From: a virus
Lineage: Duplodnaviria; Caudoviricetes
Virus record (IMG/VR): IMGVR_UViG_3300016643_000099
Span: 1 to 34,097 of that record
Reading direction: 5' to 3' (one strand)
DNA length: 34,097 nt
Part shown: piece by piece, positions 2,079 through 34,097 of the stretch
Layout: every line of letters starts with the position of its first letter
How positions within the stretch are numbered: the stretch's first letter is position 1
Translations under genes and position numbers: made by a program
The notes under the pieces: model-generated
Seen by the model: the letters and a program-made list of their open reading frames with translations, nothing else
Database searches by the model: none
Told to the model about the DNA's origin: nothing

Positions 2079-2142
2079 CCCTAACCAACCCGAGGGGCGC
2101 GGCTCACCAACGCGCATCTTTAACCCTCTAAACCCAAACCCA

Positions 2143-2415
2143 ATGAACAACCAAACCCAATTTTACCTTTTTACCGAAAAGGGCATCACCGACCGCTTTT
2201 TCTGCGGCAACATTTACGAGGCGCAAGCCAATGAGCCTATCATTTACCACGGATGCCCAATGACCTTTCAGGAATGCGCTGACAACAACCTGTGCAAGCA
2301 GTTCGCAACCCGCAAAGAGGCGAACCAGTACAGCCGCGTGCAGGAGCGTTTTTTGGAATTGAGCAACAACCACGCGCTCACAGCGATGCGCGAAGAAGAG
2401 TCCTACCTTTATTAA
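2143..2415 (+). CDS. Hypothetical early protein (90 aa)
   Basis: Starts in repeat 1 and stops on the TAA of repeat 2. Confidence 0.8.
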   Translation: MNNQTQFYLFTEKGITDRFFCGNIYEAQANEPIIYHGCPMTFQECADNNLCKQFATRKEANQYSRVQERFLELSNNHALTAMREEESYLY

Positions 2416-2434
2416 CCATCTAAACCCCAAACCA

Positions 2435-2590
2435 ATGAAACACACCTTCACCCTTGACGCGTGGTTCGCGCATATCCGCAAGCAACTGCGCACCACACCA
2501 ACACCGACACCTGCGGAAATCAAACAGCCACTGCGCTTCGACTGGGCCTTGTATGGCCGCATCCTTCAAGCTAAACACCTAACCAACTGA
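2435..2590 (+). CDS. Hypothetical early protein (51 aa)
   Basis: Hand translation MKHTFTLDAWFAHIRKQLR...AKHLTN. Starts in repeat 2. Confidence 0.7.
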   Translation: MKHTFTLDAWFAHIRKQLRTTPTPTPAEIKQPLRFDWALYGRILQAKHLTN

Positions 2591-2593
2591 CCA

Positions 2594-2821
2594 ATGAAAC
2601 TGACCAAAGACGAAGCATACATATTGGCCTGTGCGATACAGGATTCCAAATACAATTTAGTAGAAGCTTGCCAAAGCACTGACTCAAATCTGATGACTGC
2701 ATTGAATGATTTGGAAGAACGATTATTTGAGTTAGCAAAAGACCAAAGGCGAAATGGCAGAAAAAGCCATAATAGCTATACTGACATTTTGAAAAGATAT
2801 TCTAAAAAATCAACCATCTAA
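2594..2821 (+). CDS. Hypothetical early protein (75 aa), AT-rich
   Basis: From the ORF track. Stops inside repeat 3 and is visibly more AT-rich than its neighbours. Confidence 0.75.
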   Translation: MKLTKDEAYILACAIQDSKYNLVEACQSTDSNLMTALNDLEERLFELAKDQRRNGRKSHNSYTDILKRYSKKSTI

Positions 2822-2834
2822 ACCCCAAAAACCA

Positions 2835-3005
2835 ATGCAAGGTATCATCTTCAAAATCATCGGCGGCACACGCGCATACGAACTGCGGTTCACCGCAATG
2901 TCAAATCAACACGCGCAAACGGTAGCGCAAGAACTTCACACCAGCCTTGGCTTAATCGGCAGGCACTACGTTGAACTGGACAACGGCTTTTCTTTCACCA
3001 TTTAA
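2835..3005 (+). CDS. Hypothetical early protein (56 aa)
   Basis: Hand translation MQGIIFKIIGGTRAYELRF...FSFTI. Runs from repeat 3 to repeat 4. Confidence 0.72.
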   Translation: MQGIIFKIIGGTRAYELRFTAMSNQHAQTVAQELHTSLGLIGRHYVELDNGFSFTI

Positions 3006-3024
3006 CCATCTAAACCCAAACCCA

Positions 3025-3612
3025 ATGATTCAAATCACACCATTTCCCAAGTTGCACCTTGCCGCTTCAAGCGACAAGCTATACGAAAACATGAACTACA
3101 TTCAGTTCAAAACACTGCCAGCAGGCAACCAAGGCAGGGCAGGTATGTATATGGCCGCCACTGATGCGCACATATTAGCGTGGACACCTGTGGACTTCTA
3201 TATCGAAACGACTGACCTACCCGCTGAATTTTACATCCACAATGCTCAGTTCAAGAAGCTATGCCAAAGCAAACTTCAATACGTAACCTTCAACAAAGAA
3301 TCGCAGGTTGTGTTGCTTCACGACAAAAGTGGTAACGTTTATGATACGATGTTGTATATGAGTGCAGAAGCCTACAATCATATCCATAGATACCCTAACT
3401 ATGCCAGCATCATTCCAATTGATGCAACCGAACTGAACAACGGCCAATTCCACATCGATGCCAAGAGGCTATCAGATGCAATGCAGATTTTCGCGGCTGG
3501 TTGTATTACTATGAACTTCCGCACCGACAAACGCGCCTGCGTTATGAATTACAGCGACACCGAAGGCAAAGGTGAACTGCAAGTTATTGTAATGCCAATC
3601 ATTAAATTCTAA
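3025..3612 (+). CDS. Beta sliding-clamp (DnaN)-like protein, truncated (195 aa)
   Basis: AATDAHILA and RYPNYASIIP resemble the DnaN ATDGHRLA and xFPDYxxVIP motifs, and it ends in VIVMPI. Starts in repeat 4. Confidence 0.6.
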   Translation: MIQITPFPKLHLAASSDKLYENMNYIQFKTLPAGNQGRAGMYMAATDAHILAWTPVDFYIETTDLPAEFYIHNAQFKKLCQSKLQYVTFNKESQVVLLHDKSGNVYDTMLYMSAEAYNHIHRYPNYASIIPIDATELNNGQFHIDAKRLSDAMQIFAAGCITMNFRTDKRACVMNYSDTEGKGELQVIVMPIIKF

Positions 3613-3632
3613 CCATCTAAACCCCAAACCCA

Positions 3633-3830
3633 ATGACAACCCTACTTGACAAACTGACACCCGAAGCACGCGCTCAAATGGATTCGTGGCCTGCCGAAAA
3701 ACAGGAAAAAGCAATGTACTGGCTAAGCCAAAACGAGTACGTGTACGAAACGTACTACACCACCGCACGCTGGATTTGCGTTCACTTCCAACAGCCCATT
3801 GAAAACTTCTACGACCTATTCGCCGTATGA
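3633..3830 (+). CDS. Hypothetical early protein (65 aa)
   Basis: Starts in repeat 5. Confidence 0.75.
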   Translation: MTTLLDKLTPEARAQMDSWPAEKQEKAMYWLSQNEYVYETYYTTARWICVHFQQPIENFYDLFAV

Positions 3831-4000: not shown

Positions 4001-4133
4001 ACCGTTAATGCAACTTACTTCCGTTTACTGCGAGGCTGACACCCTCACCATATGCCGAGCGCGATTTGGCACGATTCGCGCCGCGTTGAATTACGCTGCC
4101 ACCCAAACACAAACTAAACCCTTAAATCAATGA
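3969..4133 (+). CDS. Small hypothetical protein (54 aa), possible regulator
   Basis: Hand translation MKNTTKTKTPKPLMQLTSVYCEADTLTICRARFGTIRAALNYAAT.. with an ATGA overlap to the next gene. Confidence 0.5.
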   Translation: MKNTTKTKTPKPLMQLTSVYCEADTLTICRARFGTIRAALNYAATQTQTKPLNQ

Positions 4134-4783
4134 CATTTACCGAATATCTTAAATCTATTAAAGCTTGCTCCGATGCAGTTGAGTGGGCATCAAATAAAAC
4201 GGTGGAGGAGGTTGTTGCTACCTGCCACCGAGGCGATTGGTTGCTGTGGCTCGCAAATAAATGCGAGATTGGACTGCAACCGCTAACACTTGCAAAGGGT
4301 CACTGCGCCAACACCGTCAGGCACTTGATGAAGGATGATGCGAGCCTTAAAGCAGTTGACACCGCGATTGCTTTTGGTGAAGGCAGGGCGAGCCGAAACG
4401 AGTTAGACATTGCCTATGCCGCTGCCGCTGTCGCTGACGCTGACGCTATCTATGTCGCTGACGCTATTACTGCCGCTGCCGCGGCCGCCGCCGCCGCCGC
4501 TGACGCTGTCTATGCCTCTGCCATTACCGCTGCCACAGCCGCTACCACTGCAGCTGCCTATGATGCTGCCTATGCCATTGCCGCTACCACTGCCGCTACC
4601 ACTGCCTCTGCCGCTGCCGCTGCCGATATGGCTGCCTATGCCGTTGCCTATGCCGTTGTTGCCGCTGACGCTGACGTTGCTCGTAATGCGAATCGATTGC
4701 AAACAGCTGACATTTGCCGAAAGTACATTGGCGACCTAATCATCCAAAAAGTTAATTTAATTCTAAACCCTTAAATCAATGAC
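4114..4783 (+). repeat. Exact 21-bp direct repeat CTAAACCCTTAAATCAATGAC
   Basis: Copies at 4114-4134 and 4763-4783 bracket the Ala-rich gene. Confidence 0.92.
4130..4774 (+). CDS. Ala-rich low-complexity phage protein
   Basis: Ordered ends (ACSDAVEW..RGDWLLWL; QTADICRKYI) surround a GCY-codon poly-Ala tract at ~4410-4680. Confidence 0.8.
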   Translation: MTFTEYLKSIKACSDAVEWASNKTVEEVVATCHRGDWLLWLANKCEIGLQPLTLAKGHCANTVRHLMKDDASLKAVDTAIAFGEGRASRNELDIAYAAAAVADADAIYVADAITAAAAAAAAAADAVYASAITAATAATTAAAYDAAYAIAATTAATTASAAAAADMAAYAVAYAVVAADADVARNANRLQTADICRKYIGDLIIQKVNLILNP

Positions 4784-7295: not shown

Positions 7296-7312
7296 ACCTC
7301 TAAATTTTAACG

Positions 7313-15114: not shown

Positions 15115-15123
15115 ATTTGCATT

Positions 15124-17135: not shown

Positions 17136-17161
17136 CACACATTTGCGGGCAGTGGTATTTA
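17133..17161 (+). promoter_or_regulatory. Putative phage late promoter
   Basis: TAGCA-N14-GTGGTATTTA. Confidence 0.65.
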
Positions 17162-17167
17162 TAGCTG

Positions 17168-17764: not shown

Positions 17765-18954
17765 GCATAACCATTGTATCTTCCCTTCCCGCCTTACTTC
17801 CTGTCGGCAATTCTGACGTGGTGGTGGTAAGCAGTGACCTAACCGCATCCGCCAACTTCCGCTACATCTGCGATGTGTCAGGAAGCACGGCATCCGCACG
17901 GCTAAAGTGCGATAAATTGCCTAATACCAGCTACGGATTCTTTGGGGTGAGCAAAGTCGTGGAAACGCTGATATTGCCCGCAGTTCCGCAGACAACAAGC
18001 GGATGGCAGGCAGGCGGCTATGCGGTGAAGGCGAACCTGACCTTCCGCGAGGAGTACGGCTCACCGCCAACGGTGGCGACAGGAACAACAACAGGTTCAG
18101 TCATCGCGTGGCAGGCGGCGTTTAGGCAACAGGACTACAACACAGCCATCGCCGCGCCAACGACATACTACGCGGCAACGGTGAGCGGTGACGCGGTGGC
18201 TTTGAAGGTGGTGAGCAACAGGCCAACATCGCAGACGCTGACCAGTGGAAGCAACGACTTCCTGTCGATGGTGGTAGATTCAGCAGTGACAGGTGTGGCA
18301 CTTCGCGTTAGTTACGATAGCGGTGCAACGCGGTCGGCTTTCTTGGTGACAGGAACAGTAAGCGGACTTGCGCCTTTGATTAACGCTGGCCCGCGTGGAT
18401 TGTACAACTTAACATCAGCGCAGTGCAGTGATGGCAGTGCAGGCTCGGTCAACTTCCCAACGCAGGGCGGCACAATTAGCGTGCGAATGTTGGCCAACAC
18501 AACAGGCGGTATCACTTCTACATTCAGTCGCACACAGTTATACACCTACACCATCGACAACTGCGAGAGATACGACCAACTGCGGGTCTTCTTCCGCAAT
18601 ATGTACGGCGGGGTGGATGGCTACACGTTTACAAAAAAGAACCGACAATCGGTAAATGTAAACCGTGAAACCTATGGCTACAACAACAGCGTGTACGGCG
18701 ATGACCAGTTCGACAAGCAATGGAGCGTCACCTATCGCGACACGTACAACCTGCAAAGCGATTGGCTATCGGATGCGGAGTTTAGTTGGTTGCAGGAGAT
18801 GGTGTATAGTCCCGAGTGCTGGATTGAGTTGTCAGGCGCGTTGGTTCCTGTTGTGGTGCAGACAAACACCTTCAACGTGATGAAGCGCATCAATGACCGC
18901 TTGCAGGCCATCACCGTTGACGTGCAGGTGGGCTACGAAAATACCGCGCTATGA
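17761..18954 (+). CDS. Tail structural protein (distal-tail-like)
   Basis: Beta/Thr-Ser-rich, with F.N.YGG.D.YTF..SDWL..E..WL.E..SP. Position supports the call. Confidence 0.55.
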   Translation: MSITIVSSLPALLPVGNSDVVVVSSDLTASANFRYICDVSGSTASARLKCDKLPNTSYGFFGVSKVVETLILPAVPQTTSGWQAGGYAVKANLTFREEYGSPPTVATGTTTGSVIAWQAAFRQQDYNTAIAAPTTYYAATVSGDAVALKVVSNRPTSQTLTSGSNDFLSMVVDSAVTGVALRVSYDSGATRSAFLVTGTVSGLAPLINAGPRGLYNLTSAQCSDGSAGSVNFPTQGGTISVRMLANTTGGITSTFSRTQLYTYTIDNCERYDQLRVFFRNMYGGVDGYTFTKKNRQSVNVNRETYGYNNSVYGDDQFDKQWSVTYRDTYNLQSDWLSDAEFSWLQEMVYSPECWIELSGALVPVVVQTNTFNVMKRINDRLQAITVDVQVGYENTAL

Positions 18955-21209
18955 TGACCAAATTCGTTTGTTACCCTGACGCTGACAACCCAACGGTAGG
19001 TTATGACCTCGACTTGTCGCAGGACACCGACATCGCCATCACGTTCAGCGTTCAGGACTTGGCCGACATCACCAAGCGGCGCGGAGCGTTCAGCAAGACA
19101 ATCGCCTTGCCATCGAGCAAAGCCAATGACATCGCCTTCCGCTACGCCTACAACGTGCAATCTTTCGTGGGTGGGTTCACGCCAAACAAGCAGGTCAAGT
19201 GCGCTTTGTGGAATGATGGGGTGCAGGTGTTTCGTGGCACAATGCAGATGCTGTCGATGTCGGTAACGCGAGGGGTGGCAACTTACGAGGTTGGCATCTA
19301 CGGCGAGGAAGTGAGCCTATTCAAGGCGATGGAAGGGGTGAAGCTGGTTGACACGGTGGGGGTGACTGGGATGAACCACACGTTCACCGAATCGCTGGTG
19401 ACAGGCAGTTGGGATGATACGTTCAGCGATGCAAGTGGGTTTGTGTATGGCATCACTGATGCGATTGGATTGGGTCACGTATTAGGCAGTCAAACGCCTG
19501 TTGGCCCGTTTGCCGCGTTGTTTACTGCGCTCAATTACGCCTTTGACAGGCTGATACCAATCGAAGTCCAGCGACCGAACATTTGGGTCAAGAAGATGAT
19601 TGACCTAATTTTCGCACAACACGGCTACCGCTACCAATCTACCTTCTTTAACAGCACGGAATTTGAGCGGCTTGTGCTTCCTTACGCGGGCGAGGCTTTT
19701 CCGTATGTCAGCGGCGAGAATAAATGCTTTGTGGGCGCATCGGGATATGTTTCGGATGCCGCATGGACTTATAACGTTATTTTCAACGACACCACATCGC
19801 CATTCTACAATTCCGATAATGGCAAGATGGACACAGGTACAGGTGTGTTTACTGCCGCAAGTGGTTATGCGGGTTTGTATAACTTGAACGTTGAGTTGAA
19901 TTTAGCAGGTGCGACTGATGCGAGTGAGTTCACGATTGAAGTTAAGGACAGCAGTGGCACTTTGCTCAAAGACACGCAGGGCAATAGCATCAGTGAGGTT
20001 GTAGGGATAGGCAGTAACATTCTATTTCACAGCATAAACAGGCAGGTATTTTTGGCGCAAAATGGCACGCTGAAAGTTGTGGTCACTGCCAACGAAGGCG
20101 CGATGGAATTGCAAGCGGGTACTTTTCAGCTAAACCTGACGCAACGTTTTTCGATGTTGAATCAGTATATCGATATGCGCACGGCATTGCCCGCCGACAC
20201 CTTGCAGATTGACCTGCTTGCAGATTTGCAGAAGATGTTCAACCTGTACTTCTACCAATCGCCGCTTGACCCAACGCTTATCTACATCGAGCCGTTTAAT
20301 GAGTTCTACACCAGCGGCGTGGTGGATTGGTCGCAGAAATCTGACGAAGCACAGGAGATGCAGATAACGATGGGCGACCCTGAACTTCGCAAGCAGTTTA
20401 CATTCGCATACCGAAATGGCGGTGAGGCGTTAGCCAAAAGCTATCAAGCGACTTGGCAGGAAGGCTACGGATGCAGGATTTTTGACACGGACAACTTCTA
20501 CGGCGTTGGCGAACAGCGAATTGAAACCAAGTGCGCAACAGTCATCCCTGCGCAGTATCGCACCAACATCGTGCTTGGTCGCACCTTTGACGTGCAGGAT
20601 GATGGCACTTTGAAAACGATGAAGACAGGTTATCGAATAGCGCAGTACAACTACGTTCAGATGACACCTGCGCCGAGTGGGTCAACCGAAACTTGGTACT
20701 GGGTAGCTAACTTCGGCACTAACATAAGCGGCTGGGTTAGCGGCAACACGCTTCCGTATATTGGTCACGTTGATAATCCATATGACCCACAACAGGACTT
20801 GGCATTTGGAATGCCAAAGCAGATTTATTTCGCGCTTCCCGATGGTCAGGGCGGCTACACGCCGTACACGAACAACAACCTGTTCAATGGTTATTGGAAG
20901 ACCTACATCGAGGAGATTGCAAGCAAGGAAGCGATGACGGTGCAGGCCACCTTCTTGTTAACCGTTACCGACATCGCATCGCTTGACTTCCGCAAGCCTG
21001 TCTACTGGCACGGCGTGAAGTGGAGGTTATTGGAAATTAGCGACTATCGGGTCGGGCGCAATGTGATGTGCAGAGTGACACTTAGGCGCATCCTGAACCT
21101 TTCGGAATTTAGCCCGCAGACGGTCACACCAAATTTAAGCTATAACCTTGAATCTGGAGTGGATGGCGAGGTCACGCCAACATTCATTTCACCTGTAAAA
21201 GTCAAATAA
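18951..21209 (+). CDS. Tail tip/hub protein
   Basis: N-terminal DI.ITFSVQDLADI.KR.GAFSKTI.LP, LQKMFNLY and a C-terminal hub-like end. Adjacent to the tape measure gene. Confidence 0.65.
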   Translation: MMTKFVCYPDADNPTVGYDLDLSQDTDIAITFSVQDLADITKRRGAFSKTIALPSSKANDIAFRYAYNVQSFVGGFTPNKQVKCALWNDGVQVFRGTMQMLSMSVTRGVATYEVGIYGEEVSLFKAMEGVKLVDTVGVTGMNHTFTESLVTGSWDDTFSDASGFVYGITDAIGLGHVLGSQTPVGPFAALFTALNYAFDRLIPIEVQRPNIWVKKMIDLIFAQHGYRYQSTFFNSTEFERLVLPYAGEAFPYVSGENKCFVGASGYVSDAAWTYNVIFNDTTSPFYNSDNGKMDTGTGVFTAASGYAGLYNLNVELNLAGATDASEFTIEVKDSSGTLLKDTQGNSISEVVGIGSNILFHSINRQVFLAQNGTLKVVVTANEGAMELQAGTFQLNLTQRFSMLNQYIDMRTALPADTLQIDLLADLQKMFNLYFYQSPLDPTLIYIEPFNEFYTSGVVDWSQKSDEAQEMQITMGDPELRKQFTFAYRNGGEALAKSYQATWQEGYGCRIFDTDNFYGVGEQRIETKCATVIPAQYRTNIVLGRTFDVQDDGTLKTMKTGYRIAQYNYVQMTPAPSGSTETWYWVANFGTNISGWVSGNTLPYIGHVDNPYDPQQDLAFGMPKQIYFALPDGQGGYTPYTNNNLFNGYWKTYIEEIASKEAMTVQATFLLTVTDIASLDFRKPVYWHGVKWRLLEISDYRVGRNVMCRVTLRRILNLSEFSPQTVTPNLSYNLESGVDGEVTPTFISPVKVK

Positions 21210-23140
21210 TGGCAGACATCAAAAACACCGTAGTCGTTGGTCTGAAACTTGAAGACGAAACGCAGAAAGGCACGCAATCGGCGAGGTCGCAACTTAAATC
21301 GTTGCGCGATGAGATGTTGCAATTGGAGCAGTCGGGACAAAAGAATACCCAACGCTTCCGTGAGTTGCAAGCGCAGGCGGGAGGACTTGCAGACCAGATT
21401 GGCGACACCCAAGCGCAAATCAAGGCGATGGCTTCCGACACGCGAACGCTGGACACCTTGCTTGGCGTGGGTCAGGGCTTGGCAGGTGCATTCGCAGTGG
21501 CGCAGGGTGCGGCGGCTTTGTTTGGTGAGGAGAACGAGGATTTGCAGAAGGCGATGATGAAAGTACAGGCGGCATTGGCAATCTTGAACGGCGTACAGGC
21601 GGTTGCTAACGTGCTGAACAAGGATAGCGCGGTAATGGTGAATCTTCACGCAACGGCGCAGAAAATATTTAGCAGTACGTTGGTCACATCCATTGCCAAA
21701 ATGAATGCGTTTAAGCTATCATTAGCAACGACAGGTGTGGGGGTGTTGATTGTGGCTATTGGGTTGCTGGCTGAGTATTTTAGCAATTTGAGCGATGAAG
21801 TTGAGGAGGCGAAAAAGAAACAAGATGACTACAATGAATCGCTGAAAAGACAAAAGGAACTTGTTGACCAAGCCAATACAAATGCACAGATACGCAACGA
21901 TTTGCTAGCGGCACAAGGTAAAGCGGTGGATGCGGCAAGGTCGCAGATGACATTGGCTGAGCAAGAAATTAGGCAGGAGCAAGAATTTACAAACGAAAAA
22001 TTAAGGCAACGTAAAAGGTTAATTGATGCAGGCTATGCTGAAACTGACCAATACATCCAATTGATTGACAAGCACGTTGGGGAATCAGAAGGCAGAAGGC
22101 TAAAAGCTCAAATTACACTTTTAGAATCGCAGAAGACCATTGACGATGCCGCAAAGGCAAGCGCAGATGCAGCGCAAAAAAGAGAAGAAGAAAGGCAAGC
22201 AAAAGCCAAAAAAACCGCCGAGGAACGCGCCGCGAAAGAGCAGGAAGTCAACAATATCATAGCCGCCTCACGACAGGCGTTGCTGATGGCTACGCTGTCG
22301 GATAACGAAAAAGAACTGGAATCCATTGACCAATCTTTTGAGGAGCGACTGGCAAAGGTCAAGGGCAATGAAGAAGCGACAAATTTGGTGCTTGAAGAAT
22401 TGCGGGTGGCGCGACAGGCTAAACTGGATGAGCAGGCGGCGGTGGCAAAGCAAAAAGAGGATGAACGGTTAGCCGCTGAACTGGAACAACAGAAGGCGGA
22501 AATTGACTATAAGATTGCGCTGGAAGATGAATATTATGCGCAACAACAAGCGATGCGGGAGAAGGCAAAAGCCGATGAACAAGCATTGCAACAAGCGCGG
22601 GTACAATTTTACAACGACGCATCGCAAAGCATCGTTACCATATTACAGGCGTTTGGCAACAAGTCGAAGGGATTTATGTTGGCGGCATTGGCTTTGGAAA
22701 AAGGCGTGGCTATTGCAAACGTCATCATCAATCTGCAGAAAGAAATAGCTGGTATTTCTGCCAATGCGGCGGCAAATCCAGCCAACGCGTTGACCGCGGG
22801 TGCGGCAGGTGCGGCGCAGGCGGCCACGCTCATAACGATGGCCAAAGTCAAAGCAGCGTTGAGTATTGCAGCAATTGCGGCAACAGGATTGAATCAGGCT
22901 AAAAGCATTTCAGGTGCAGGCGGTGGAGGTGGAGGCGGAGGTAGTGTTAGCGCAGGCGGCGGCAATATGGGCGGGCAGGCATTGCCACCACCAACAGCAA
23001 CCAACCCGAATGCGCAACTGCTGAACCCACCTGCTAACGGCCAAGGCTCAGGAATGCGTGCTTATGTGGTTGAGAGCGACATCCGAAGTGTAAGCGGCAG
23101 GCTTCGGCGGATGAGTGAATTTGCAACGTTGGGGGCGTAA
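21209..23140 (+). CDS. Tape measure protein
   Basis: 643-aa Ala/Gln/Glu-rich coiled coil with hydrophobic Ala/Gly segments and C-terminal RAYVVESDI. Confidence 0.8.
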   Translation: MADIKNTVVVGLKLEDETQKGTQSARSQLKSLRDEMLQLEQSGQKNTQRFRELQAQAGGLADQIGDTQAQIKAMASDTRTLDTLLGVGQGLAGAFAVAQGAAALFGEENEDLQKAMMKVQAALAILNGVQAVANVLNKDSAVMVNLHATAQKIFSSTLVTSIAKMNAFKLSLATTGVGVLIVAIGLLAEYFSNLSDEVEEAKKKQDDYNESLKRQKELVDQANTNAQIRNDLLAAQGKAVDAARSQMTLAEQEIRQEQEFTNEKLRQRKRLIDAGYAETDQYIQLIDKHVGESEGRRLKAQITLLESQKTIDDAAKASADAAQKREEERQAKAKKTAEERAAKEQEVNNIIAASRQALLMATLSDNEKELESIDQSFEERLAKVKGNEEATNLVLEELRVARQAKLDEQAAVAKQKEDERLAAELEQQKAEIDYKIALEDEYYAQQQAMREKAKADEQALQQARVQFYNDASQSIVTILQAFGNKSKGFMLAALALEKGVAIANVIINLQKEIAGISANAAANPANALTAGAAGAAQAATLITMAKVKAALSIAAIAATGLNQAKSISGAGGGGGGGGSVSAGGGNMGGQALPPPTATNPNAQLLNPPANGQGSGMRAYVVESDIRSVSGRLRRMSEFATLGA

Positions 23141-23149
23141 TGGTATTTG
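23121..23149 (+). promoter_or_regulatory. Putative phage late promoter
   Basis: TTGCA-N14-ATGGTATTTG. Confidence 0.6.
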
Positions 23150-23154
23150 CAAGT

Positions 23155-23742
23155 ATGGAACAGCTCCCTGTTTACCTGATGACGATTGACGAAGATGGCG
23201 AGGGTGTCAGCTACGTCAGCCTCGTGGAATCACCCGCAATCGAGCGGCCATTTATCGCATTAAGCACTCAACAGCGGTTTGCCGAAGATGCGGCACTTCG
23301 CATCCTGACAGGCCCGCTTATGCTGGCAGACACGCCAATTCTACGAAGCGATGACCAGCGGGGCAAGTATTACGTGATTTTTGACAAGGATACCATCCGC
23401 AAGATGGTGCAGAAGTATTTCAAGCAGCAGAACCAAGCGAAGGTGAATGCGGAACATAGCAAGCCGCTGGATGGCGTGTATATGTTTGAAAGCTACCTGA
23501 TTGACCGCGAGCGCGGGGTGAATCCACCGAAGGGATTTGAAGATGCACCTGACGGCAGTTGGTTCGGTTCGTTCAAAGTTGAGAATGACAAGGTGTGGGC
23601 AGAACGCGACCAGTTCACAGGTTTCAGCATTGAAGGCTATTTCGGGATGCAACCAACAGAGGCGAGCGTGGAAGCGGCGATGGCGAACCTTGAAGAGGCG
23701 TTCAATCTTTTTTTGCATACTATCAAACAGCGTGGTATTTAA
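23155..23742 (+). CDS. Prohead serine protease (XkdF-like)
   Basis: SLVESPAI, LTGPLMLAD, NAEH, GSWF.SFKV and GFSIEG. Confidence 0.8.
   Translation: MEQLPVYLMTIDEDGEGVSYVSLVESPAIERPFIALSTQQRFAEDAALRILTGPLMLADTPILRSDDQRGKYYVIFDKDTIRKMVQKYFKQQNQAKVNAEHSKPLDGVYMFESYLIDRERGVNPPKGFEDAPDGSWFGSFKVENDKVWAERDQFTGFSIEGYFGMQPTEASVEAAMANLEEAFNLFLHTIKQRGI
23713..23741 (+). promoter_or_regulatory. Putative phage late promoter
   Basis: TTGCA-N14-GTGGTATTTA. Confidence 0.72.
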
Positions 23743-23757
23743 CTACAAAAGCGACAA

Positions 23758-24345
23758 ATGAGCATAGCAAATCGTTTGACTGAATTGGCTGACGCATTGC
23801 GGAAGTTTACCGCAACGCCAACGCCGCAGAATTTTGCAGATTACAAACTGGAAGACGGCACGATGGTGCGCGTTGATGGTGACTTGGTTGCAGGTACGCC
23901 TGTGTTCGTTGTAACGGAAGAAGGGATGTTGCCCGCACCTGATGGACAGCACACTGTACCCGAAGTTGGCGTGATTACCACCGAAGGCGGCAAGATTGTA
24001 GAAGTGGGTGACCTGCCAGCAGGTGAGCCAGTCGTTGAGGAGGAAGTAGCGGCACAGGAAGTGGAGATTGAAGTCGCACCCGAAGGCGAGGCCGCCGAAG
24101 CCGAAATAGACGCGAGAATTAGCGCACTTGAAGCCAAGCTGGATGAGATTATGGCGAAGTTGGCAGGGGCGATGGAGGCAAACAAAGCGCGGTTTGACCA
24201 GTTGGATATTGAGGTTCAGAAGATGAGCAAGGTGCCAACGGCAGAGCCACGCAAGCGCACCAGCGATGCGATTGTTGAGAACATCAAGTTGTCGCGCAAC
24301 ACGAATTTTGAAGCATTAACACAAAACCTAAAAAACCTAAAATAA
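23758..24345 (+). CDS. Capsid scaffold-like protein
   Basis: KLEDGT..PAPDGQH followed by an acidic coiled coil. Lies between the protease and capsid genes. Confidence 0.6.
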   Translation: MSIANRLTELADALRKFTATPTPQNFADYKLEDGTMVRVDGDLVAGTPVFVVTEEGMLPAPDGQHTVPEVGVITTEGGKIVEVGDLPAGEPVVEEEVAAQEVEIEVAPEGEAAEAEIDARISALEAKLDEIMAKLAGAMEANKARFDQLDIEVQKMSKVPTAEPRKRTSDAIVENIKLSRNTNFEALTQNLKNLK

Positions 24346-24351
24346 AAAACT

Positions 24352-25338
24352 ATGAGCTTTTCACTTGGAGGATTAACATCCTACGTTGAGCAACAGCGAT
24401 TGCCGTTGCTGACCAAAGCCGTCTTCGATGCGAAGACGCAGTCATTAATGCAGAAGCGTGTTGGCGTTAAGTATGAGGAAGCCCTCAACTTGATGGACAC
24501 CGATGCAGTATTCCAAGCCGCATCCACCTGTGCGTGGAATGCGTCAGGAACAACCACGTTCAGCCAGCGTAACATCAGCGTTGCGCGGGTGAAGGTGCAG
24601 GAGGAGTTGTGTCCTCGCTCGTTGGAACAATACTGGATGCAAACCCAGTTGACGCAAGGTAGCAACTACGAAGGCGTACCTTTCGAGCAGGCTTTCGCAG
24701 AGAAGAAAGCGAAGCAGATTGCCAAGAACATTGAGAACGCCATTTGGCAGTCAACCACTGCAACTGGTGCCTCAGGGTGGACAGGTTCATCTGCATCATT
24801 GAGCGGTGACGCGAATTTGAACAAGACCGTTGGTTTGCTTCACCTGATGGAAAAGACAGCCGCATCTGGTTCAATCGTGTCGAGCCTTGCAACTTCGACT
24901 ATCAATGACAGTACCGTCGTGGGCGCGTTTGAGACCGTTTACCAAAACATCCCTGTTGAAATCATCAGCAAGGACGACATCTACGCTTTTTGCGGATGGG
25001 ATACCTACCGCATCCTTGCCAACAAACTTGTAGGTTTGAACCTGTATCAGGGTGACCTTGGGCAGTTGGGCGCAGGCGAGATGTTCTTCCCATCGACCAA
25101 TATGCGTGTATGCGCGGTGAATGGCTTGAACAGCACCCGCCGAATCGTAGCGACTTCGTTGAGCAACCTGTTTTTCGGTACTGACCTGCTTTCCGATGAG
25201 GACACTTTCCGCATCTGGGCGAGTTACGACAACGACCAAATCCGCTTCCAAGCGGCGTTGAAATACGGGGTGCAGTTTGCTTATCCCGAATTTATGGTGC
25301 TGTACAGAGCGAGCAACTCAACGCAACCTGCTGGCTGA
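24352..25338 (+). CDS. Major capsid protein
   Basis: 328 aa after the protease and scaffold, strong A-rich start, IENAIWQ and NLFFGTDL, followed by a terminator. Confidence 0.8.
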   Translation: MSFSLGGLTSYVEQQRLPLLTKAVFDAKTQSLMQKRVGVKYEEALNLMDTDAVFQAASTCAWNASGTTTFSQRNISVARVKVQEELCPRSLEQYWMQTQLTQGSNYEGVPFEQAFAEKKAKQIAKNIENAIWQSTTATGASGWTGSSASLSGDANLNKTVGLLHLMEKTAASGSIVSSLATSTINDSTVVGAFETVYQNIPVEIISKDDIYAFCGWDTYRILANKLVGLNLYQGDLGQLGAGEMFFPSTNMRVCAVNGLNSTRRIVATSLSNLFFGTDLLSDEDTFRIWASYDNDQIRFQAALKYGVQFAYPEFMVLYRASNSTQPAG

Positions 25339-25341
25339 TGA

Positions 25342-25369
25342 AAGGGCAGGGAAACCTGCCCTTCTTTTT
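25342..25369 (+). terminator. Intrinsic terminator after the major capsid gene
   Basis: AAGGGCAGG-GAAA-CCTGCCCTT followed by CTTTTT. Confidence 0.85.
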
Positions 25370-25396
25370 CTTCTGACACTATAAACAAGAAAAAAT

Positions 25397-25945
25397 ATGA
25401 GCTGCGCACTTACATCTGGTTATGCATTAGGTTGCCGCAATAACGTTGGCGGCATTAGCGAAATTAGGCTTGCGTCTTACGTTGCATCGGGAGTCATAGC
25501 CACCAACGCCACAGGCACGGTGAGTGGCTTCACTGGCTACGCTTCGGGTAGCAATGCCTTCTACAAATACGAATTGCCGAAGGGTGTGGGTCAGTTCACC
25601 GAAACGACCAACGCCAGTGTTGAAAACGGCACTATCTTCTACCAGCAAGAAATGACGCTGGTCATTAACAGGCTCACGCAGGAGGTGCGCAATCAGTTGC
25701 GCCTTGCTTCCAACGGCAGGTTGCTGGCAATCGTCACCGACCGCAACGGCAAGTATTGGCTGTTGGGTGAAACGAATGGCATTGAGGTGACTGGCGGCAC
25801 GGCGCAGTCAGGAACAGCGATGGGTGACCGTGGTGGCTACGAGCTTACCTTCACTGCGATGGAGGCACAGCCTTGCCGCGAGGTATTATCGACTGCCATT
25901 GCAGGGGTAACCGCAACAGCGCAAATCACAGGCGGCGCGAATTAA
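25397..25945 (+). CDS. Major tail tube protein
   Basis: MSCALTSG...C....GGI, ENGTIFYQQE and G.AMGD..GYELTF.A.E. Confidence 0.65.
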   Translation: MSCALTSGYALGCRNNVGGISEIRLASYVASGVIATNATGTVSGFTGYASGSNAFYKYELPKGVGQFTETTNASVENGTIFYQQEMTLVINRLTQEVRNQLRLASNGRLLAIVTDRNGKYWLLGETNGIEVTGGTAQSGTAMGDRGGYELTFTAMEAQPCREVLSTAIAGVTATAQITGGAN

Positions 25946-25968
25946 TTGTAGTTAAGTTTGGGGTGGTT

Positions 25969-26010
25969 GAAAGCCAGTGCATTAAGGGTTGCACTGGCTT
26001 TCTTATTTTT
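25969..26010 (+). terminator. 13-bp hairpin terminator, possibly a small RNA
   Basis: GAAAGCCAGTGCA-TTAAGGGT-TGCACTGGCTTTC followed by TTATTTTT. Confidence 0.8.
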
Positions 26011-26038
26011 GCACAACGTTAACCCTTAAATCTGCACA

Positions 26039-27109
26039 ATGAGAATCTGCATCGTTTACAACCAACACCCGACTGGGTGCAGTTATTATCGCCTTGAAAT
26101 GCCGAATGCCGCCGTTCACGACCTATGCGGTGGCGTGGTGGACTTCGTCAGCATCGACGACATCAGGAGGATGAATGATGATGAACTGAAAACCATTGAC
26201 TTATTCCTGTACAACCGAACGTGGATAGCAGGCCCGATTGAAGCGGTGGAACAGGTGGCCAACATCCTGCGGCAGTACGGTGCGCGCATTATTTTGGATA
26301 TGGACGATTACTGGCACCTTGGCACAGGGCATAGCTTTTACAGGCACTACCACGAAACCAAGATGCCTGCCATCATTGAGAAGCATATCAGGCTGTCTGA
26401 CCACATCATTTGCACTACCACCTACCTGCGCGATGAGTTGGTAAAATTTAATAAGAAAGTCAGCATTTTCCCGAATACGCCTTACATTCAGTACAAGCAA
26501 TTTCAGGAACAGCCAACGCAAAGCGAGCGGGTGCGGTTTGGTTACTTCGGCGCGGCCCAGCACACAGAGGATGTTGAACTAATGCGGTCACCGTTGCAAC
26601 GCCTGTCGGATGAAACCCAACTGGACGGCAAGTATATGATTTACTTGGCGGGATGGAATGAGAATAACCCGATATATCAAGGATATGAGCAGGTATTCAG
26701 CAATAAAGGCAAGAACAACAACTATTCGCGGATTCAAGCGGCGGATATTTACAGCTATGTGCAGGGGTATAATTGGGTGGACGTGAGCCTTGCGCCACTG
26801 CGCGACACCAAGTTTAACAAGTTGAAGTCGGAGTTGAAGATAACGGAAGCGGCTTGGATGGGTAAGGCGGTCATTGCCAGCGAGGTGCCGATGTATGCGG
26901 ACTGCATTGAGAATGGCGTGGATGGTTGGCTTGTTCCCGAGAAGAAGGAGAAGCTGTGGCACAAGTATATGCGGGCGTTCATCAACGAGCCAGCGATGGC
27001 AAAGGAAATGGGTGAGCGGTTACGTGCGAAGATGCAGGGCAAGTTTGACATCCAGCAAATCAGCGAGGCAAGGTTGAATTTGTACAAAAGCGTGGCGCGT
27101 GGTATTTAG
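26039..27109 (+). CDS. GT-B glycosyltransferase
   Basis: GCSYYRL..P, DMDDYW, LAPL..KFNKLKSELKITEA..GKAVIAS.V.MY and NGVDGWLV. Confidence 0.85.
   Translation: MRICIVYNQHPTGCSYYRLEMPNAAVHDLCGGVVDFVSIDDIRRMNDDELKTIDLFLYNRTWIAGPIEAVEQVANILRQYGARIILDMDDYWHLGTGHSFYRHYHETKMPAIIEKHIRLSDHIICTTTYLRDELVKFNKKVSIFPNTPYIQYKQFQEQPTQSERVRFGYFGAAQHTEDVELMRSPLQRLSDETQLDGKYMIYLAGWNENNPIYQGYEQVFSNKGKNNNYSRIQAADIYSYVQGYNWVDVSLAPLRDTKFNKLKSELKITEAAWMGKAVIASEVPMYADCIENGVDGWLVPEKKEKLWHKYMRAFINEPAMAKEMGERLRAKMQGKFDIQQISEARLNLYKSVARGI
27080..27108 (+). promoter_or_regulatory. Putative phage late promoter
   Basis: TTGTA-N14-GTGGTATTTA. Confidence 0.72.
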
Positions 27110-27114
27110 AAGTA

Positions 27115-27921
27115 ATGCTATACCTGAAAGCCAGCCAATCCAACACCATCAGCGTCACGTGGACAGAGCGCGCAAGCAACGCGAACATCTACAAGTTGAT
27201 TCTGACCAACATCGCCAAGAACACCAGCACCGCGATTTACATAGACGCGATTAGCAACGCGAGCAGTTACGAGGAGAGATATGACCGCTTTACGTTTACG
27301 TTGGGTGCGCTTGAGAAGGGACAATACAAATACGAGGTGTTGCAGGACGCGAATGGATACGAGGCAGGTGACGCGCTTGGCGGCGGATTGTTCGTGTTTG
27401 AGGATGGCGGCTATGCGTACATCAGTGCGGCGGCTGACCAAAGCGACAAAGCACCTTGGGGGTGTGATACAGTGAATATCAGCGGTACATTAGAGGCTAT
27501 CGGCAAAGGCTCGGCAAACACGGCGTTAATCGTTGCGGGTTGCACCACATCGGGTATAAGTGCAGAGATTTGCGAGAAATTAACCCTGAACGGGTATAGC
27601 GATTGGTTTCTTCCTTCGCTGAATGAATTGGCTGAAATGTACACCCAGCTTGATGCTAACGGCTTCGGTGGCTTTGCAAATCAAAGTTATTGGTCATCCA
27701 CGCAGGATTCAGTTGACCCAGTAAAAAACGCAATGACGATTGACTTTAATAACGGCAACGAGCACGCTCACCAGAAGTCACAAACCAACCGCCACACGCG
27801 AGCGATGCGGAGATTTTTGATGGGAACCCCGAAGGTCGTGGAAACAGGATTGGCGTACATCGAACCCGCAGTTGAAACCTACGTTGCACCAAGTAACAAC
27901 AACACCTATGTCAGCTTCTAA
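27115..27921 (+). CDS. Structural protein containing a DUF1566/Lcl-type C-lectin-fold domain
   Basis: IG.G..NT..I, GYSDWFLPSLNEL, YWSSTQ, DFNNG and RAMRRF motifs inside a beta-rich protein just before the portal. Confidence 0.7.
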   Translation: MLYLKASQSNTISVTWTERASNANIYKLILTNIAKNTSTAIYIDAISNASSYEERYDRFTFTLGALEKGQYKYEVLQDANGYEAGDALGGGLFVFEDGGYAYISAAADQSDKAPWGCDTVNISGTLEAIGKGSANTALIVAGCTTSGISAEICEKLTLNGYSDWFLPSLNELAEMYTQLDANGFGGFANQSYWSSTQDSVDPVKNAMTIDFNNGNEHAHQKSQTNRHTRAMRRFLMGTPKVVETGLAYIEPAVETYVAPSNNNTYVSF

Positions 27922-29959
27922 ATTCGCATTCAGTTTCATCCCGACCACCGACTACCAGTTACCCGTTATGCTTGAAAACAAGCAGGCCAATATGGTGCTG
28001 TTTGGTGAGCGCAATGAATACCCATATTACCTGCTTGACAACTACCATAAGAGTGCAAAGCACTGCGCCATCGTGAATGGCAAGGTTCACTACATCGTTG
28101 GCAAGGGATGGAAGGCGAGCGACAAAGGCACGGTTGAACAGCAGGCACGTGCGGAGGAGTTCATCCGCGACCCGAATGTTGAGGATGACCTGAACGACCT
28201 GACCGAGAAGCTGGTGCTGGATTTGGAGTTGTTCAACGGCTTCGCGCTTGCGGTGACGTGGAACAGGGGTGGCGGCATTGCTTTTGTCGAACACGTGCCA
28301 TTCCAGAAGGTACGCGTGTCGTTGGACGATGAGATGTTCCTAATTGCTGACTGGTACGATGCGCGTATGGTTCAGCAGTTTCCACGCGGAAACGAGGTCG
28401 AGAAGATGCCGAAGTTTGATGAGCAGAACCGCGTTGGCAAGCAGATGTTTTACTACCGCCATTATTCGGCAGGAGTTCAGCATTACCCGCTTCCTAATTA
28501 CCAAGGTGCGCTTGCGTACATTGAGTGCGACGCGGAGATAGCGCGCTTTCATATCAACAACATCCGCAACCAGTTTTGGGGCGGGCAGTTGATAAACTTT
28601 GCTGATGGCATCCCGACTGAGGAAGAAAAGGATGAGATTGAACGGATGATGCGCCGCAAGTTCAGCGGTGCAGGGAACGCAGGCAGGTTCGTGTTGACCT
28701 TCAGCAGTGGCAAGGAAAGCGCGCCGAGCATCCAGTCGCTCACGCCGAGCGACCTTGATAAGCAGTTCGACCTGCTGAACAAGCAGATACAAGAAGAAAT
28801 ATTTGTCGCGCACAATGTAACCAACCCACAATTGTTTGGCGTGAAGACCGAAGGGCAGTTGGGTGGCAGGAAGGAATTGATTGAGGCGTATGAGCTGTTC
28901 AAAAACACCTACGTCAACGCACGCGTGATGATTGTGGAACGGATGATTAACTACATTGCAGGATTCAACAACATCGAAGGCCTATACCTATGCCCAACTG
29001 ACCCAGTGACGGAGCAGTTAAGCGAACAGGTGCTGACGCAGATAATGACGCGCAACGAATTGCGCGAGAAGGCAGGACTTGACCCGCTTGAAGAAGAACA
29101 GGCGCAACCCGAAGGCGCACCTGCGGCGGAGGCATTGGCAACCGAGCCAGTGAACGAAGCATTGCGCACGATGACAGGACGGCAGTTTCAGCACCTGATG
29201 CGGATTGTCCGCAACTTCCAGTCGGGCAAGATTAGCGAGGCGCAGGCACGCACGATGTTGGGCAGTGGCTTTGGATTGACCGCCGAGCAGATTAACGACT
29301 TCCTGACCGATGGCCAAGCCGAGTTCAGCGCACAGGGCGAGGATGCAGAGATGCGGGTGTTGGCGACGGTTGGGTCGCAATTTGGCGATGACGCGGAAGC
29401 CTTTGACGTGGTGGATAGCTGGGAACTTGCGCTTGAAGGCGACCCTGAAACCTTTGCGGTGGATGAGGAGGAAGAGAAGCTGGATAAGCGGATTATGGCC
29501 TATCGCAAGAAGAACAGGCTGGCAACGGTGAAAGAAATGGCCGAGGCGTTGAAGGTAAGCCCCGCGAAGATTCGCAAGCGCATTGCGTATCTGCTGGAAA
29601 AGAACCGCTTCCCGATTAGCCGCGATATTGACATCGCAACCAAAGAAAAGCCAGTTGAAGAAGAGGTAGTGGAGGTGCGCTACCGCTACGACTGGCGGCC
29701 TGAATATTCGGGGTTGAGCAAGGAGGATGGATATGACAAAAGCCGCAAGTTCTGCCAGACAATGCTGGATTTGAGCGCGACCAAGTTGTATACGCGTTCA
29801 GATATAAACGACATCGGGCAGTTAGTTGGGTGGAATGTTTGGGAGCGCAGAGGCGGGTGGTTTACCCTTCCCGATGGCAGACACAGGCCATCGTGCAGAC
29901 ATATGTGGGTTCAGCAGTTGGTAGTCAAAAAAGGAACAACAGTTAAACGTGTAGTATGA
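27908..29959 (+). CDS. Portal protein with C-terminal HTH and Cys/His extension
   Basis: FGE.N.YP.YL..Y..S..H.AI, YPLP.Y.GA, FSG..NAG.F and I..AH.V..P.LFG, followed by ~270 extra aa. Confidence 0.85.
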   Translation: MSASKFAFSFIPTTDYQLPVMLENKQANMVLFGERNEYPYYLLDNYHKSAKHCAIVNGKVHYIVGKGWKASDKGTVEQQARAEEFIRDPNVEDDLNDLTEKLVLDLELFNGFALAVTWNRGGGIAFVEHVPFQKVRVSLDDEMFLIADWYDARMVQQFPRGNEVEKMPKFDEQNRVGKQMFYYRHYSAGVQHYPLPNYQGALAYIECDAEIARFHINNIRNQFWGGQLINFADGIPTEEEKDEIERMMRRKFSGAGNAGRFVLTFSSGKESAPSIQSLTPSDLDKQFDLLNKQIQEEIFVAHNVTNPQLFGVKTEGQLGGRKELIEAYELFKNTYVNARVMIVERMINYIAGFNNIEGLYLCPTDPVTEQLSEQVLTQIMTRNELREKAGLDPLEEEQAQPEGAPAAEALATEPVNEALRTMTGRQFQHLMRIVRNFQSGKISEAQARTMLGSGFGLTAEQINDFLTDGQAEFSAQGEDAEMRVLATVGSQFGDDAEAFDVVDSWELALEGDPETFAVDEEEEKLDKRIMAYRKKNRLATVKEMAEALKVSPAKIRKRIAYLLEKNRFPISRDIDIATKEKPVEEEVVEVRYRYDWRPEYSGLSKEDGYDKSRKFCQTMLDLSATKLYTRSDINDIGQLVGWNVWERRGGWFTLPDGRHRPSCRHMWVQQLVVKKGTTVKRVV

Positions 29960-30522
29960 GCATCGCCTTATTTGTAAGTGAGCAATACCTGCTGGAAAAC
30001 AGCGTCATCAACGAAAACGTAGCCTACACCCAAATCAGGCCCACGTTGGTCAAGGTGCAGGATATGCATATTCAACCCGCGCTTGGTTCGGCCTTGTACA
30101 AAGAAGTGCAGGCGCAGGTGGTTAGCGGTTCGGTGACTGCGCTAAACACGACACTGCTTGAAGATTACATCCAACCTGCCATCGTGCAATGGATGTACTT
30201 TGAACTGCCGATGGTGCTATCGTTTAAGTATATGAACAAAGGGATGGACCGCAGGACCAGTACCGAAAGCAACCCGATGAGCGTGGATGAGGTGTTTCAG
30301 TTGATGGACAAGGTCAAGAACGATGCGGAATGGTACACGGAAAGGATAACGCGTTACCTACAAGAGAACCACGCCAGTTACCCATTGTTTGACAACCCAC
30401 CAACGGCTATCGACACGATTTACCCCAATGGAAGCAGTTACGAAACAGGAATGGCACTTGGAAGGCGTGGGCGTTTCCGTGACCCGATTGACTTTCCCGA
30501 AAAACGCTTTTACCCATTTTAA
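29956..30522 (+). CDS. Head-tail adaptor-like protein
   Basis: QD.HIQP.LG..LY..L.DYIQP..Y.ERI..YL, directly after the portal. Confidence 0.55.
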   Translation: MSIALFVSEQYLLENSVINENVAYTQIRPTLVKVQDMHIQPALGSALYKEVQAQVVSGSVTALNTTLLEDYIQPAIVQWMYFELPMVLSFKYMNKGMDRRTSTESNPMSVDEVFQLMDKVKNDAEWYTERITRYLQENHASYPLFDNPPTAIDTIYPNGSSYETGMALGRRGRFRDPIDFPEKRFYPF

Positions 30523-30561
30523 TGGCACACGCGAAAAACATAAACAAATTAAAGCAGTACT

Positions 30562-31065
30562 ATGAGTTGGGTTCGATTAAAGAACGACCTGCTGACGTTT
30601 GCGGCGGGTCATCCACAAATCAACAGCGTGGGCTTCGGCGACCCGTTGGCGATAGGAACGGACAACACAATCAACCTACGGACAACCGACAGGGATAGGG
30701 TTGTTTACCCTTTGCTGTTTGCCGACCTGCAGTCGATGACCGCGAATGTTGGTGCGCTGACGCTTGGCGTTAGCGTGCTTGTGATGGACAGGGTTGAAGA
30801 TAGCCGCAACCTATCCACAGCGGTCACTGGTAGCGTTGTGGTGCGTTGGACGGATAACGAAGACGAGGTGCTGAACGACACGCTGTACATTATGCGTGAC
30901 TTCATCAGCAAATTCACCAACGACCCTGCGAAGGATTACACCTTGCAGGATGCGGTTAGTGCAACGCGATTCGTGGAGGCGCGGGATGACAAGGTCGCAG
31001 GATGGCAGGCAACCGCCAACTTCGACTTTGAATATCCGCACAATTCTTGCGAAGTTCCGACATAA
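30562..31065 (+). CDS. Tail terminator-like protein
   Basis: YPLL, VMD, VLNDTL.I..D and F.E..DD.VAGW pattern. Confidence 0.55.
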   Translation: MSWVRLKNDLLTFAAGHPQINSVGFGDPLAIGTDNTINLRTTDRDRVVYPLLFADLQSMTANVGALTLGVSVLVMDRVEDSRNLSTAVTGSVVVRWTDNEDEVLNDTLYIMRDFISKFTNDPAKDYTLQDAVSATRFVEARDDKVAGWQATANFDFEYPHNSCEVPT

Positions 31066-31075
31066 GTGGTATTTA
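31047..31075 (+). promoter_or_regulatory. Putative phage late promoter
   Basis: TTGCG-N14-GTGGTATTTA. Confidence 0.72.
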
Positions 31076-31090
31076 ACTAAAAACAGCGAT

Positions 31091-31363
31091 ATGAACATTG
31101 GACAACAATTAGACGCAATGCTGGGTGGCTATGGTGGCATTACCGTAGTCACTGGCGCGGTCACAGGTCAGGCGTTTGAATTCCTTGTGGTAAACGCATC
31201 CACGAGTTTCACAACCCTCACCGACAGCGAAGGCAACAACGCGCTGACCTACTTGGGCTTGTCAGGGATTACGGTGATGACAGGGATGATTGTCAGGGCG
31301 CGTTACGGCTTGAAGTTGGCGGCGGCCACTGTATCAGGCGGCAACGTATTTGCGTATTCCTGA
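31091..31363 (+). CDS. Small beta-rich virion protein (90 aa)
   Basis: ATG 31091 after the late promoter, ending in SGGNVFAYS. Confidence 0.65.
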   Translation: MNIGQQLDAMLGGYGGITVVTGAVTGQAFEFLVVNASTSFTTLTDSEGNNALTYLGLSGITVMTGMIVRARYGLKLAAATVSGGNVFAYS

Positions 31364-33405: not shown

Positions 33406-33659
33406 TGGCTACCTTCAGAAAGTATAGCTTCCCAACCCAAGCCGAGTTCGAGGCTTTCTTCACGCTATCCCAACCCGATGCCACCTGCGTGGAGTTGGGC
33501 GACATCGATGGCACCTACTGCGTTGACCTGCTGTGGAACGACCAACCCGATGCAGATTGGGAGCAATTTGAAGTTTGGCCTGAACCTGTCGGCGTGCATA
33601 CCTTCCTCGGCTGGGACGAAACTTACACCAAAGAATACAATGAAAGACTTCCTAAATAG
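33405..33659 (+). CDS. Fibre-associated small protein
   Basis: FRKY.F..VELG..Y.VD.LW..P.P.GVHTF.GW, coupled to the fibre gene. Confidence 0.65.
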   Translation: MATFRKYSFPTQAEFEAFFTLSQPDATCVELGDIDGTYCVDLLWNDQPDADWEQFEVWPEPVGVHTFLGWDETYTKEYNERLPK

Positions 33660-33942
33660 TATCGGCATCAACATCGGCCTAACCATCGCGGGCTTCCTTG
33701 GCTCGCTTATCCTGCTTCCCAAACAGCGGAATTGGAAGATGCAGTTGATTAGCGTGTTCAGTGGCTCACTATGCGCCACCTACCTCGCGCCTGTGGTGAT
33801 TGGCTTTCTGGGAATAAACGCGCCGAATATCGAATATGGCATTGCATTCTTGGTGGGATTCAGCGGGGTCAAAATCGCCGAAGTGCTTGAAAAAAAACTA
33901 CTCAAAACCCTTAACAATGGAAGTCACCCGCAACGCAACTAA
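33640..33942 (+). CDS. Holin-like protein with three hydrophobic segments
   Basis: ATG 33640 MKDFLNSIGINIGLTIAGFLGSLILL.., with a basic C-terminus. Confidence 0.65.
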   Translation: MKDFLNSIGINIGLTIAGFLGSLILLPKQRNWKMQLISVFSGSLCATYLAPVVIGFLGINAPNIEYGIAFLVGFSGVKIAEVLEKKLLKTLNNGSHPQRN

Positions 33943-34097
33943 CATCCACACCCTGAACTACGAGGGCGACGAACTGAACCTTCTGCTCATTTCCGACATA
34001 CATTGGGACAACCCGAAGTGCGACAGGGTGTTGCTCAAAAAGCATTTGGACATAGCAAAAGAAATGAACGCAGGGGTCATCGTCAATGGTGACTTTT
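33917..34097 (+). CDS. Metallophosphoesterase, 5' part (continues at base 11 after the overlap)
   Basis: MEVTRN..LLLISDIHWDNPKCD..VIVNGDF contains the DxH and GD motifs. Confidence 0.88.
   Translation, partial: MEVTRNATNIHTLNYEGDELNLLLISDIHWDNPKCDRVLLKKHLDIAKEMNAGVIVNGDF

Follow-up and report, generated by a model that had tools for sequence, protein, structure and literature searches.

The seed of the enteric small RNA GcvB is G/U-rich. GcvB is a multi-target sRNA of enteric bacteria whose silencing is directed at A/C-rich, translation-enhancing motifs located ahead of start codons (PMC3879156). GibS of Bacteroides thetaiotaomicron is a trans-acting sRNA with a conserved, single-stranded 5′ seed that pairs with translation initiation regions; the same source recognizes 3′-UTR-derived sRNAs as a class (PMC7366714). 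Antisense RNAs are also encoded by phages, namely C4 of phage P1 (PMC8198154) and sar, OOP and 24B_1 (PMC12197685), all of which hold down genes of their own phage.

The window analysed here is a whole virus record of 34,097 bases, in which all main genes lie on the + strand and run from the early cassette and replication genes (~1.9-12.4 kb) through the terminase and structural genes to lysis. Its TAnnTTTG boxes, its A/C-rich leaders devoid of Shine-Dalgarno (SD) sequences and its relatives point to a Bacteroidota host; the relatives are found in Chitinophagaceae assemblies, and Nonlabens phage P12024S is a cultured relative. The element under study (25946-26010) begins behind the stop codon of gene 25397-25945. 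With moderate confidence, we interpret it as an antisense RNA with multiple targets, which would keep ribosomes from entering the mRNAs of the early genes and of the adjacent glycosyltransferase (GT) gene. The element has a terminator-like stem, is complementary to start regions, ranks at the top of the genome in this respect and co-varies with the leaders across clades. Literature searches listed no description of such an element in Bacteroidota phages.

Like GcvB as described in PMC3879156, the element has many putative targets, and its seed is predicted to be complementary to A/C-rich motifs ahead of their starts. GcvB, however, is chromosomal and acts on amino-acid transport genes beside the SD, whereas the element is phage-coded and would be aimed at the phage's own early genes. 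With GibS it shares a conserved, predicted single-stranded seed complementary to initiation regions in the Bacteroidota as well as a predicted intrinsic terminator, made of the stem structure and the T-tail; it differs in that GibS, as presented in PMC7366714, is a host metabolic sRNA with two shown targets, while the predicted targets of the element share a repeated tag and change together with the seed. C4, sar, OOP and 24B_1 are likewise phage-coded and self-directed, but according to the cited accounts each of them controls a single gene or operon within the lysis-lysogeny switch (PMC8198154, PMC12197685), whereas the element faces about ten scattered genes from behind a structural gene. 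Unlike C4, which is encoded with its icd/ant targets, it has that structural gene and a glycosyltransferase as neighbours. Finally, the element resembles 3′-UTR-derived sRNAs (PMC7366714) in that its terminator is common with the parent mRNA, the stem beginning 23 nt behind the stop of 25397-25945, but sister clades rely on a promoter box located 3′ of the stop codon. In terms of sequence, the element matches neither the GcvB nor the C4 model of Rfam and has no positive likeness to GibS. Rfam searches around the element gave nothing above chance (two weak rows), and no hit reached the gathering score when the window was searched together with four stretches from two relatives.

Behind the stop codon, the layout consists of a 23-nt arm, the 13-bp stem with its 8-nt loop, a T-tail overlapping TATTTTTG, and a 23-nt GT leader (Table 1). 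The hairpin with its loop and the two TAnnTTTG boxes flanking it are all present as the sequence-only reading had described them; followed by a T-tail, the hairpin tops the list of terminator-like sites within 16000-34097. Little or no variation is seen among 23 aligned sequences in the arm words GTAGTT and GTTTGGG, the loop core, the 26004 box and the GT leader. In isolation, the predicted fold of 25946-26010 is a hairpin preceded by an unpaired arm (z -4.6). The 26004 box is likely the -7 promoter of the GT gene, judging from the consensus given in PMC6847099; T-tails like the one it overlaps are closely followed by gene starts in unrelated loci too. The 25953 box, in contrast, is found in only 1 of the 23 aligned sequences (that of the window), with TCAGTTTG in 21, and is therefore not a conserved promoter; as the promoter of the putative RNA it was rejected. 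YUNR is known as an RNA loop motif, and a reading of the hairpin loop as YUNR was rejected too, the motif being lost in 7-nt loop variants. The expression data consist of one RNA run, present as contigs only (share 0.08), in which no discrete transcript was seen; contigs cannot show transcript ends.

Table 1. Features of the element, its surroundings and its predicted targets in the window.
Feature	Position	Strand	Remarks
Repeated early-cassette leaders before 2143, 2435, 2835, 3025, 3633	2119..3643	+	strongest predicted arm targets
21-nt leader repeat before gene 4130	4114..4134	+	predicted target
21-nt leader repeat before gene 4779	4763..4783	+	predicted target, conserved across clades A-D
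Tail-tube gene (likely)	25397..25945	+	phrog_19091; directly 3′ of likely major capsid gene; 3′ end carries the element
G/U arm	25946..25968	+	predicted single-stranded; 20/23 nt G/T, no C
-7-like box TAAGTTTG	25953..25960	+	private to this genome type
Terminator-like stem, 13 bp	25969..26002	+	compensatory changes at 4/13 pairs; pairing 100% across 23 sequences
Loop TTAAGGGT	25982..25989	+	second predicted seed; TAAGGGT in 22/23 aligned sequences
Box TATTTTTG	26004..26011	+	invariant in 23/23; overlaps terminator T-tail
GT leader AACCCTTAAATCTGCAC	26021..26037	+	invariant in 23/23, though 5 nt ahead vary; predicted target of loop and arm
Glycosyltransferase (GT, group 1)	26039..27109	+	predicted target of the element
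Gene 33917, leader	33906..33919	+	leader a predicted target; gene runs off the window end

The parent gene of the element likely encodes the tail tube, based on its position after the likely capsid gene and on weak fold matches: the top Foldseek rows are phage tail tubes, with a best E of 1.9e-3, none at or below 0.001, and a model pLDDT of 68. L450 has two tail-tube-like genes, the second directly after the first, and three tail-tube-like matches occur within one assembly (G031). The late region of the window also holds two cassettes with their own host-type promoter boxes, 15112-16448 (a hexapeptide acetyltransferase-like gene and a GT4 gene) and 26004-27109 (the GT1 gene); our guess is that they modify surface or virion glycans. 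Regarding lifestyle, the PF00589 tyrosine integrase is absent in 5/5 records searched, and one genome that carries a D-type element (see below), G055, is classed as a provirus.

The starting point was a 9-mer, AACCCTTAA, which occurs four times on the + strand (4117, 4766, 26021 and 33906) and once on the - strand, across the hairpin loop (25982-25990). The + copies end 5, 5, 10 and 3 nt ahead of the ATGs at 4130, 4779, 26039 and 33917, respectively; the last of these genes likely continues in 1-708, a phrog_7339 nuclease/phosphoesterase. Likewise, ACCCCAAAC lies on the + strand at 2424 and 3621 and on the - strand at 25956-25964 (0.13 expected). All of these positions agree with the sequence-only reading, and in a shuffled genome only 0.14 occurrences of the 9-mer are expected, 0 of 100 shuffles reaching five. 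Such a whole-genome null is too lenient and overstates the significance, given that the leaders belong to one family of A/C-rich repeats (repeat sets D3/D6/D19). We therefore tested the element against relatives and other controls. Gene 4779 is PF27148-like by language-model features, and gene 4130 contains a long, Ala-rich, low-complexity repeat at 4399-4680.

The predicted matches fall mostly on early genes: 31/134 early genes as opposed to 9/205 others in 7 of 10 genomes, with G001, G007 and G010 left out since their early/late boundaries were wrong. In the window, the median energies are -9.6 kcal/mol for early and -3.5 kcal/mol for other genes (p 9e-6). After correction for accessibility, genes 3633, 2835, 2435, 4130, 9712, 3025, 2143 and 33917 rank first, all via the arm, which reaches -10.5 to -16.1 kcal/mol after opening costs against the cassette leaders (2143, 2435, 2835, 3025, 3633). 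The loop is also predicted to pair, but its duplexes come to only about -9 to -10 kcal/mol (about -9 for GT and 4779), a level that the capsid gene and gene 23758 also reach. The stronger predicted pairing is thus that of the arm 5′ of the hairpin, which these models suggest as the main seed against both the early start regions and the GT leader. The matches centre at about -13 to -5 relative to the start. This coincides with the region of A-3, A-6 and A-12/-13, which raise translation in F. johnsoniae (PMC6847099).

The complementarity to A/C-rich leaders would be incidental if the element were simply an ordinary terminator whose G/U-rich 3′ UTR is retained on other grounds, such as protein binding or stability. 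Both sides are of low complexity, and in the window alone the element matches 7 of 51 start regions against 3.6 for its dinucleotide shuffles (p=0.09); across genomes, the same test gives p<0.05 in 9 of 26. However, the element is the top of the genome. In a scan of 45-nt + strand windows it mirrors 7 of the phage's own start regions (Watson-Crick matches of at least 8 nt), a number that no other window reaches; it is the best + strand mirror window in the window phage and in G020, G001, G006 and G007, and lies in the top 1% in 8/12 genomes of clades A-D and in 10/36 overall. In clades E, F, I, K and L the scan gives no enrichment and the element is unremarkable. Coding interiors match it at about 1-2%. 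The control UTRs also argue against an ordinary terminator, since they are A-rich: the arms before 15 Chitinophagaceae terminators have an A content of 0.35-0.38, and those before 67 unrelated terminators that share the stem base an A content of 0.39 and a G content of 0.13. A generic Bacteroidota 3′ UTR feature was not seen in the 15 UTRs (taken from 400 kb of two Chitinophagaceae genomes that are not necessarily those of the host). The UTR of the tail-tube gene is A-rich as well in integrated copies on large bacterial contigs.

The clade-specific words of the element and of the leaders switch together, which also speaks against an ordinary terminator. Scoring each element against the start regions (-30 to +9) of 26 genomes (12 clades) in a cross matrix shows an excess of own-clade matches, with permutation p values of 1e-4 (k=7, 8) and 1e-3 (k=9), and with ranks of 2, 1 and 1 of 120 for the five nearest clades alone, although these tests rest on few independent units because the clades are few and related. 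In clade A, the orthologues of gene 4779 carry the leader CTAAACCCTTAAATCA in 12 of 13 loci, the remaining one having a G-U-compatible change, and face the loop TAAGGGT; AAACCTCA is found in 45/65 more distant loci with a readable start. Among 24 records with a gene 4779 orthologue that were followed up, the tail gene is present in 12. The AAACCTCA leader occurs in 5/5 genomes with a TGAGGTTT element and in 0/7 with a GGTTTAGTGG (D) element, and all 12 keep a match of 7-11 nt. Over 21 genomes, the own-clade pairing of gene 4779 ranks 1 of 24, but in only 7/21 does the own element outscore all foreign ones, as the leader dialects overlap. With automatic starts, p<0.05 is obtained in only 5/68 gene families, and p is 0.075 for gene 4779 when 9 clades are included; these starts come from a simple script that misplaced some of them, e.g. 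those of GT in clades B-D, which were corrected for the GT comparison below. At a fine scale, the private arm change of the window shows no covariation, its leaders giving 3 matches with this arm as opposed to 5 with the arm of the relatives. Considering that foreign elements often match equally and that the element is absent from many lineages on one side, and the joint switching, the genome rank, the A-rich controls and the promoter boxes of three clades (see below) on the other, we regard the ordinary terminator as unlikely.

Relatives with 50-66% protein identity retain the layout, while the words differ. The element reads TTTTGGTTGGTTGG in clade B, GGTTTTCAT plus TGAGGTTTG in clade C, a 5′ hairpin whose loop is CTCAT together with ATGGTTTAGTGG in clade D, and TTGTCGTT in clade E. 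The distant Nonlabens phage P12024S has an arm rich in U and G (p=0.03 against shuffles). The raw duplex energies of clade D are meaningless, given that its 5′ hairpin was left unpaired in the calculation. While the clade of the window has no conserved -7 box, a -7-like box lies 0-5 nt behind the stop in all 10/10 whole records of clades B, C and D. Clade B has the variant TATATTAG, which also replaces TATATTTG at an orthologous early promoter. From its sequence, the clade D layout (box, then a 5′ hairpin at the start) would be that of a small-RNA gene. With a box-to-start-site spacing of 4-5 nt (PMC6847099), the unit between promoter and terminator in clades B-D would thus be ~55-65 nt long. 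In a distant AT-rich clade (S), most of the 53 distinct sequences listed carry TAGTAGTTTTCATATAT, which mirrors ATATATGAAAACTACTA, or a close variant of it; the GTAGTTTTCATAT of this clade mirrors a start codon context, and its best own matches include one orthologous gene in 5/8 genomes. Many far lineages have A-rich UTRs and lack the element. In clade E, a D-type unit (promoter-like box, CTTCAT-loop hairpin, U/G linker, terminator) lies behind another gene (G021 24891 and G022 3572, in oriented record coordinates), and in G017 a TTTTTCAT arm precedes another terminator. The D-type unit may move between sites.

A control in cis only would have the long-range helix of the arm, or a pseudoknot of the loop, hide the GT start, the early matches then reflecting a shared leader motif. 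The predicted fold does hide the GT leader: in a read-through RNA with the leader attached, the arm pairs with it (-32.3 kcal/mol). Moreover, the GT start co-varies with the element, its own-clade match ranking 1 of 120 with and without G-U pairs; it is a conserved predicted target. This pairing runs via the loop in clade A (8.2 nt), via the arm in clade E (8.5 nt, or 12.5 nt with G-U) and via the arm over the AUG in clade C (11 nt with G-U), and is weak in clades B and D. The loop-leader pairs are 99% paired in 23 sequences, but 6/7 never vary and 0 are compensatory; the loop and the GT leader being invariant in clade A, they give no covariation evidence, and it is the arm that co-varies with the leaders across clades. 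Among the family loci of a metagenome scan, there are no loop variants with matching changes in the GT leader. The loops of clades B-E, which are tetraloops or other loops, do not mirror the GT start, so the proposed cis pseudoknot over GT is confined to the clade of the window. Clades B-D keep an element that mirrors distant early genes, yet their GT is leaderless or nearly so; a cis block therefore cannot explain them. Furthermore, the GT promoter box lies behind the terminator, such that most GT mRNA would lack the element. A mechanism in cis alone is consequently quite unlikely in our estimation, but on read-through RNA the GT start may be blocked in cis as well, alongside the antisense RNA. 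Since GT is leaderless or nearly so in clades B-D, its leader looks inserted in clade A. TGCACAA occurs twice in 26009-26038, flanking the GT leader motif on both sides.

Alternatively, the RNA could mainly shut off host mRNAs with similar start regions, the matches in the phage being a by-product. The element of clade H matches 13.6% and 7.9% of Chitinophagaceae start regions, compared with 2.0% and 2.5% for shuffles, and anti-AUG words recur (5/39 element clusters vs. 1.9 expected). The element of the window, in contrast, shows no excess on two Chitinophagaceae genomes (2.6 vs. 2.8% and 3.2 vs. 1.9%), which is weak evidence because these genomes need not be the true host. We consider host shut-off as the main function very unlikely. 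An explanation at the level of DNA, in which a protein-binding site or recombination repeat is present as an inverted copy in the element, or the element is the leader of a minus-strand gene, is highly improbable: the leaders are indeed near-exact DNA repeats, but the matches are split over arm and loop, mirror ATGs, where present, hit a stop within a few codons or change frame, and the absence of a minus-strand ATG, ORF start and nearby -7 box rules out such a gene.

The multi-target antisense RNA could work as follows. In the clade of the window, the abundant tail-tube mRNA would supply it, either as its 3′ end or as a fragment cleaved from it, whereas clades B, C and D would make it from their own -7 promoter. 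It would pair at about -20 to +8, over the initiation determinants A-3, A-6 and A-12/-13 of the Bacteroidota (PMC6847099), and thereby damp the early proteins as structural transcription rises; the presumed targets are genes with host-type promoters, i.e. the early cassette and GT. The sequence-only reading had proposed a trans sRNA or 3′-UTR silencer expressed late. Its trans or 3′-UTR version withstands its own refuting condition, in that arm and leaders co-vary across clades; several far clades give no signal. The timing can only be inferred, given the host-type promoter box that clades B, C and D possess themselves: it would be late in the clade of the window and possibly from the start of infection in clades B-D. 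A wider version of the antisense model is tentative, and we hold it to fall somewhat short of an even chance: an RNA-run regulon, in which the early start regions carry clade-specific tags, one small RNA behind the tail-tube gene switches the set down, and tag and RNA co-evolve, with the RNA of some lineages mirroring the start codon and potentially hitting host mRNAs as well.

A second RNA-like element was noticed at 7188-7305, ahead of a primase/VirE-like gene. It comprises a TATATTTG box, a 5′ hairpin with the loop ATACCAG and a terminator-like hairpin with the loop CTGGTAT; the two loops are exact complements and are predicted to kiss. Ten different loop/partner pairs, all exactly complementary, are seen in 41 records, some of which overlap, and there is no Rfam match. 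The covariation is much stronger here than for the element at 25946-26010. From its sequence, 7188-7305 is likely an attenuator of the replication gene.

The phage antisense RNAs described to date mostly act on one lysis-lysogeny gene or on host genes. If the antisense reading of 25946-26010 is true, the damping of a whole early set by a single RNA through shared tags would be a new way of timing phage infection. It would also explain the repeated leaders, and the natural co-varying pairs offer ready-made matched and mismatched controls for a reporter test. Finally, it would show sRNA control of many genes in a phylum that lacks Shine-Dalgarno sequences.
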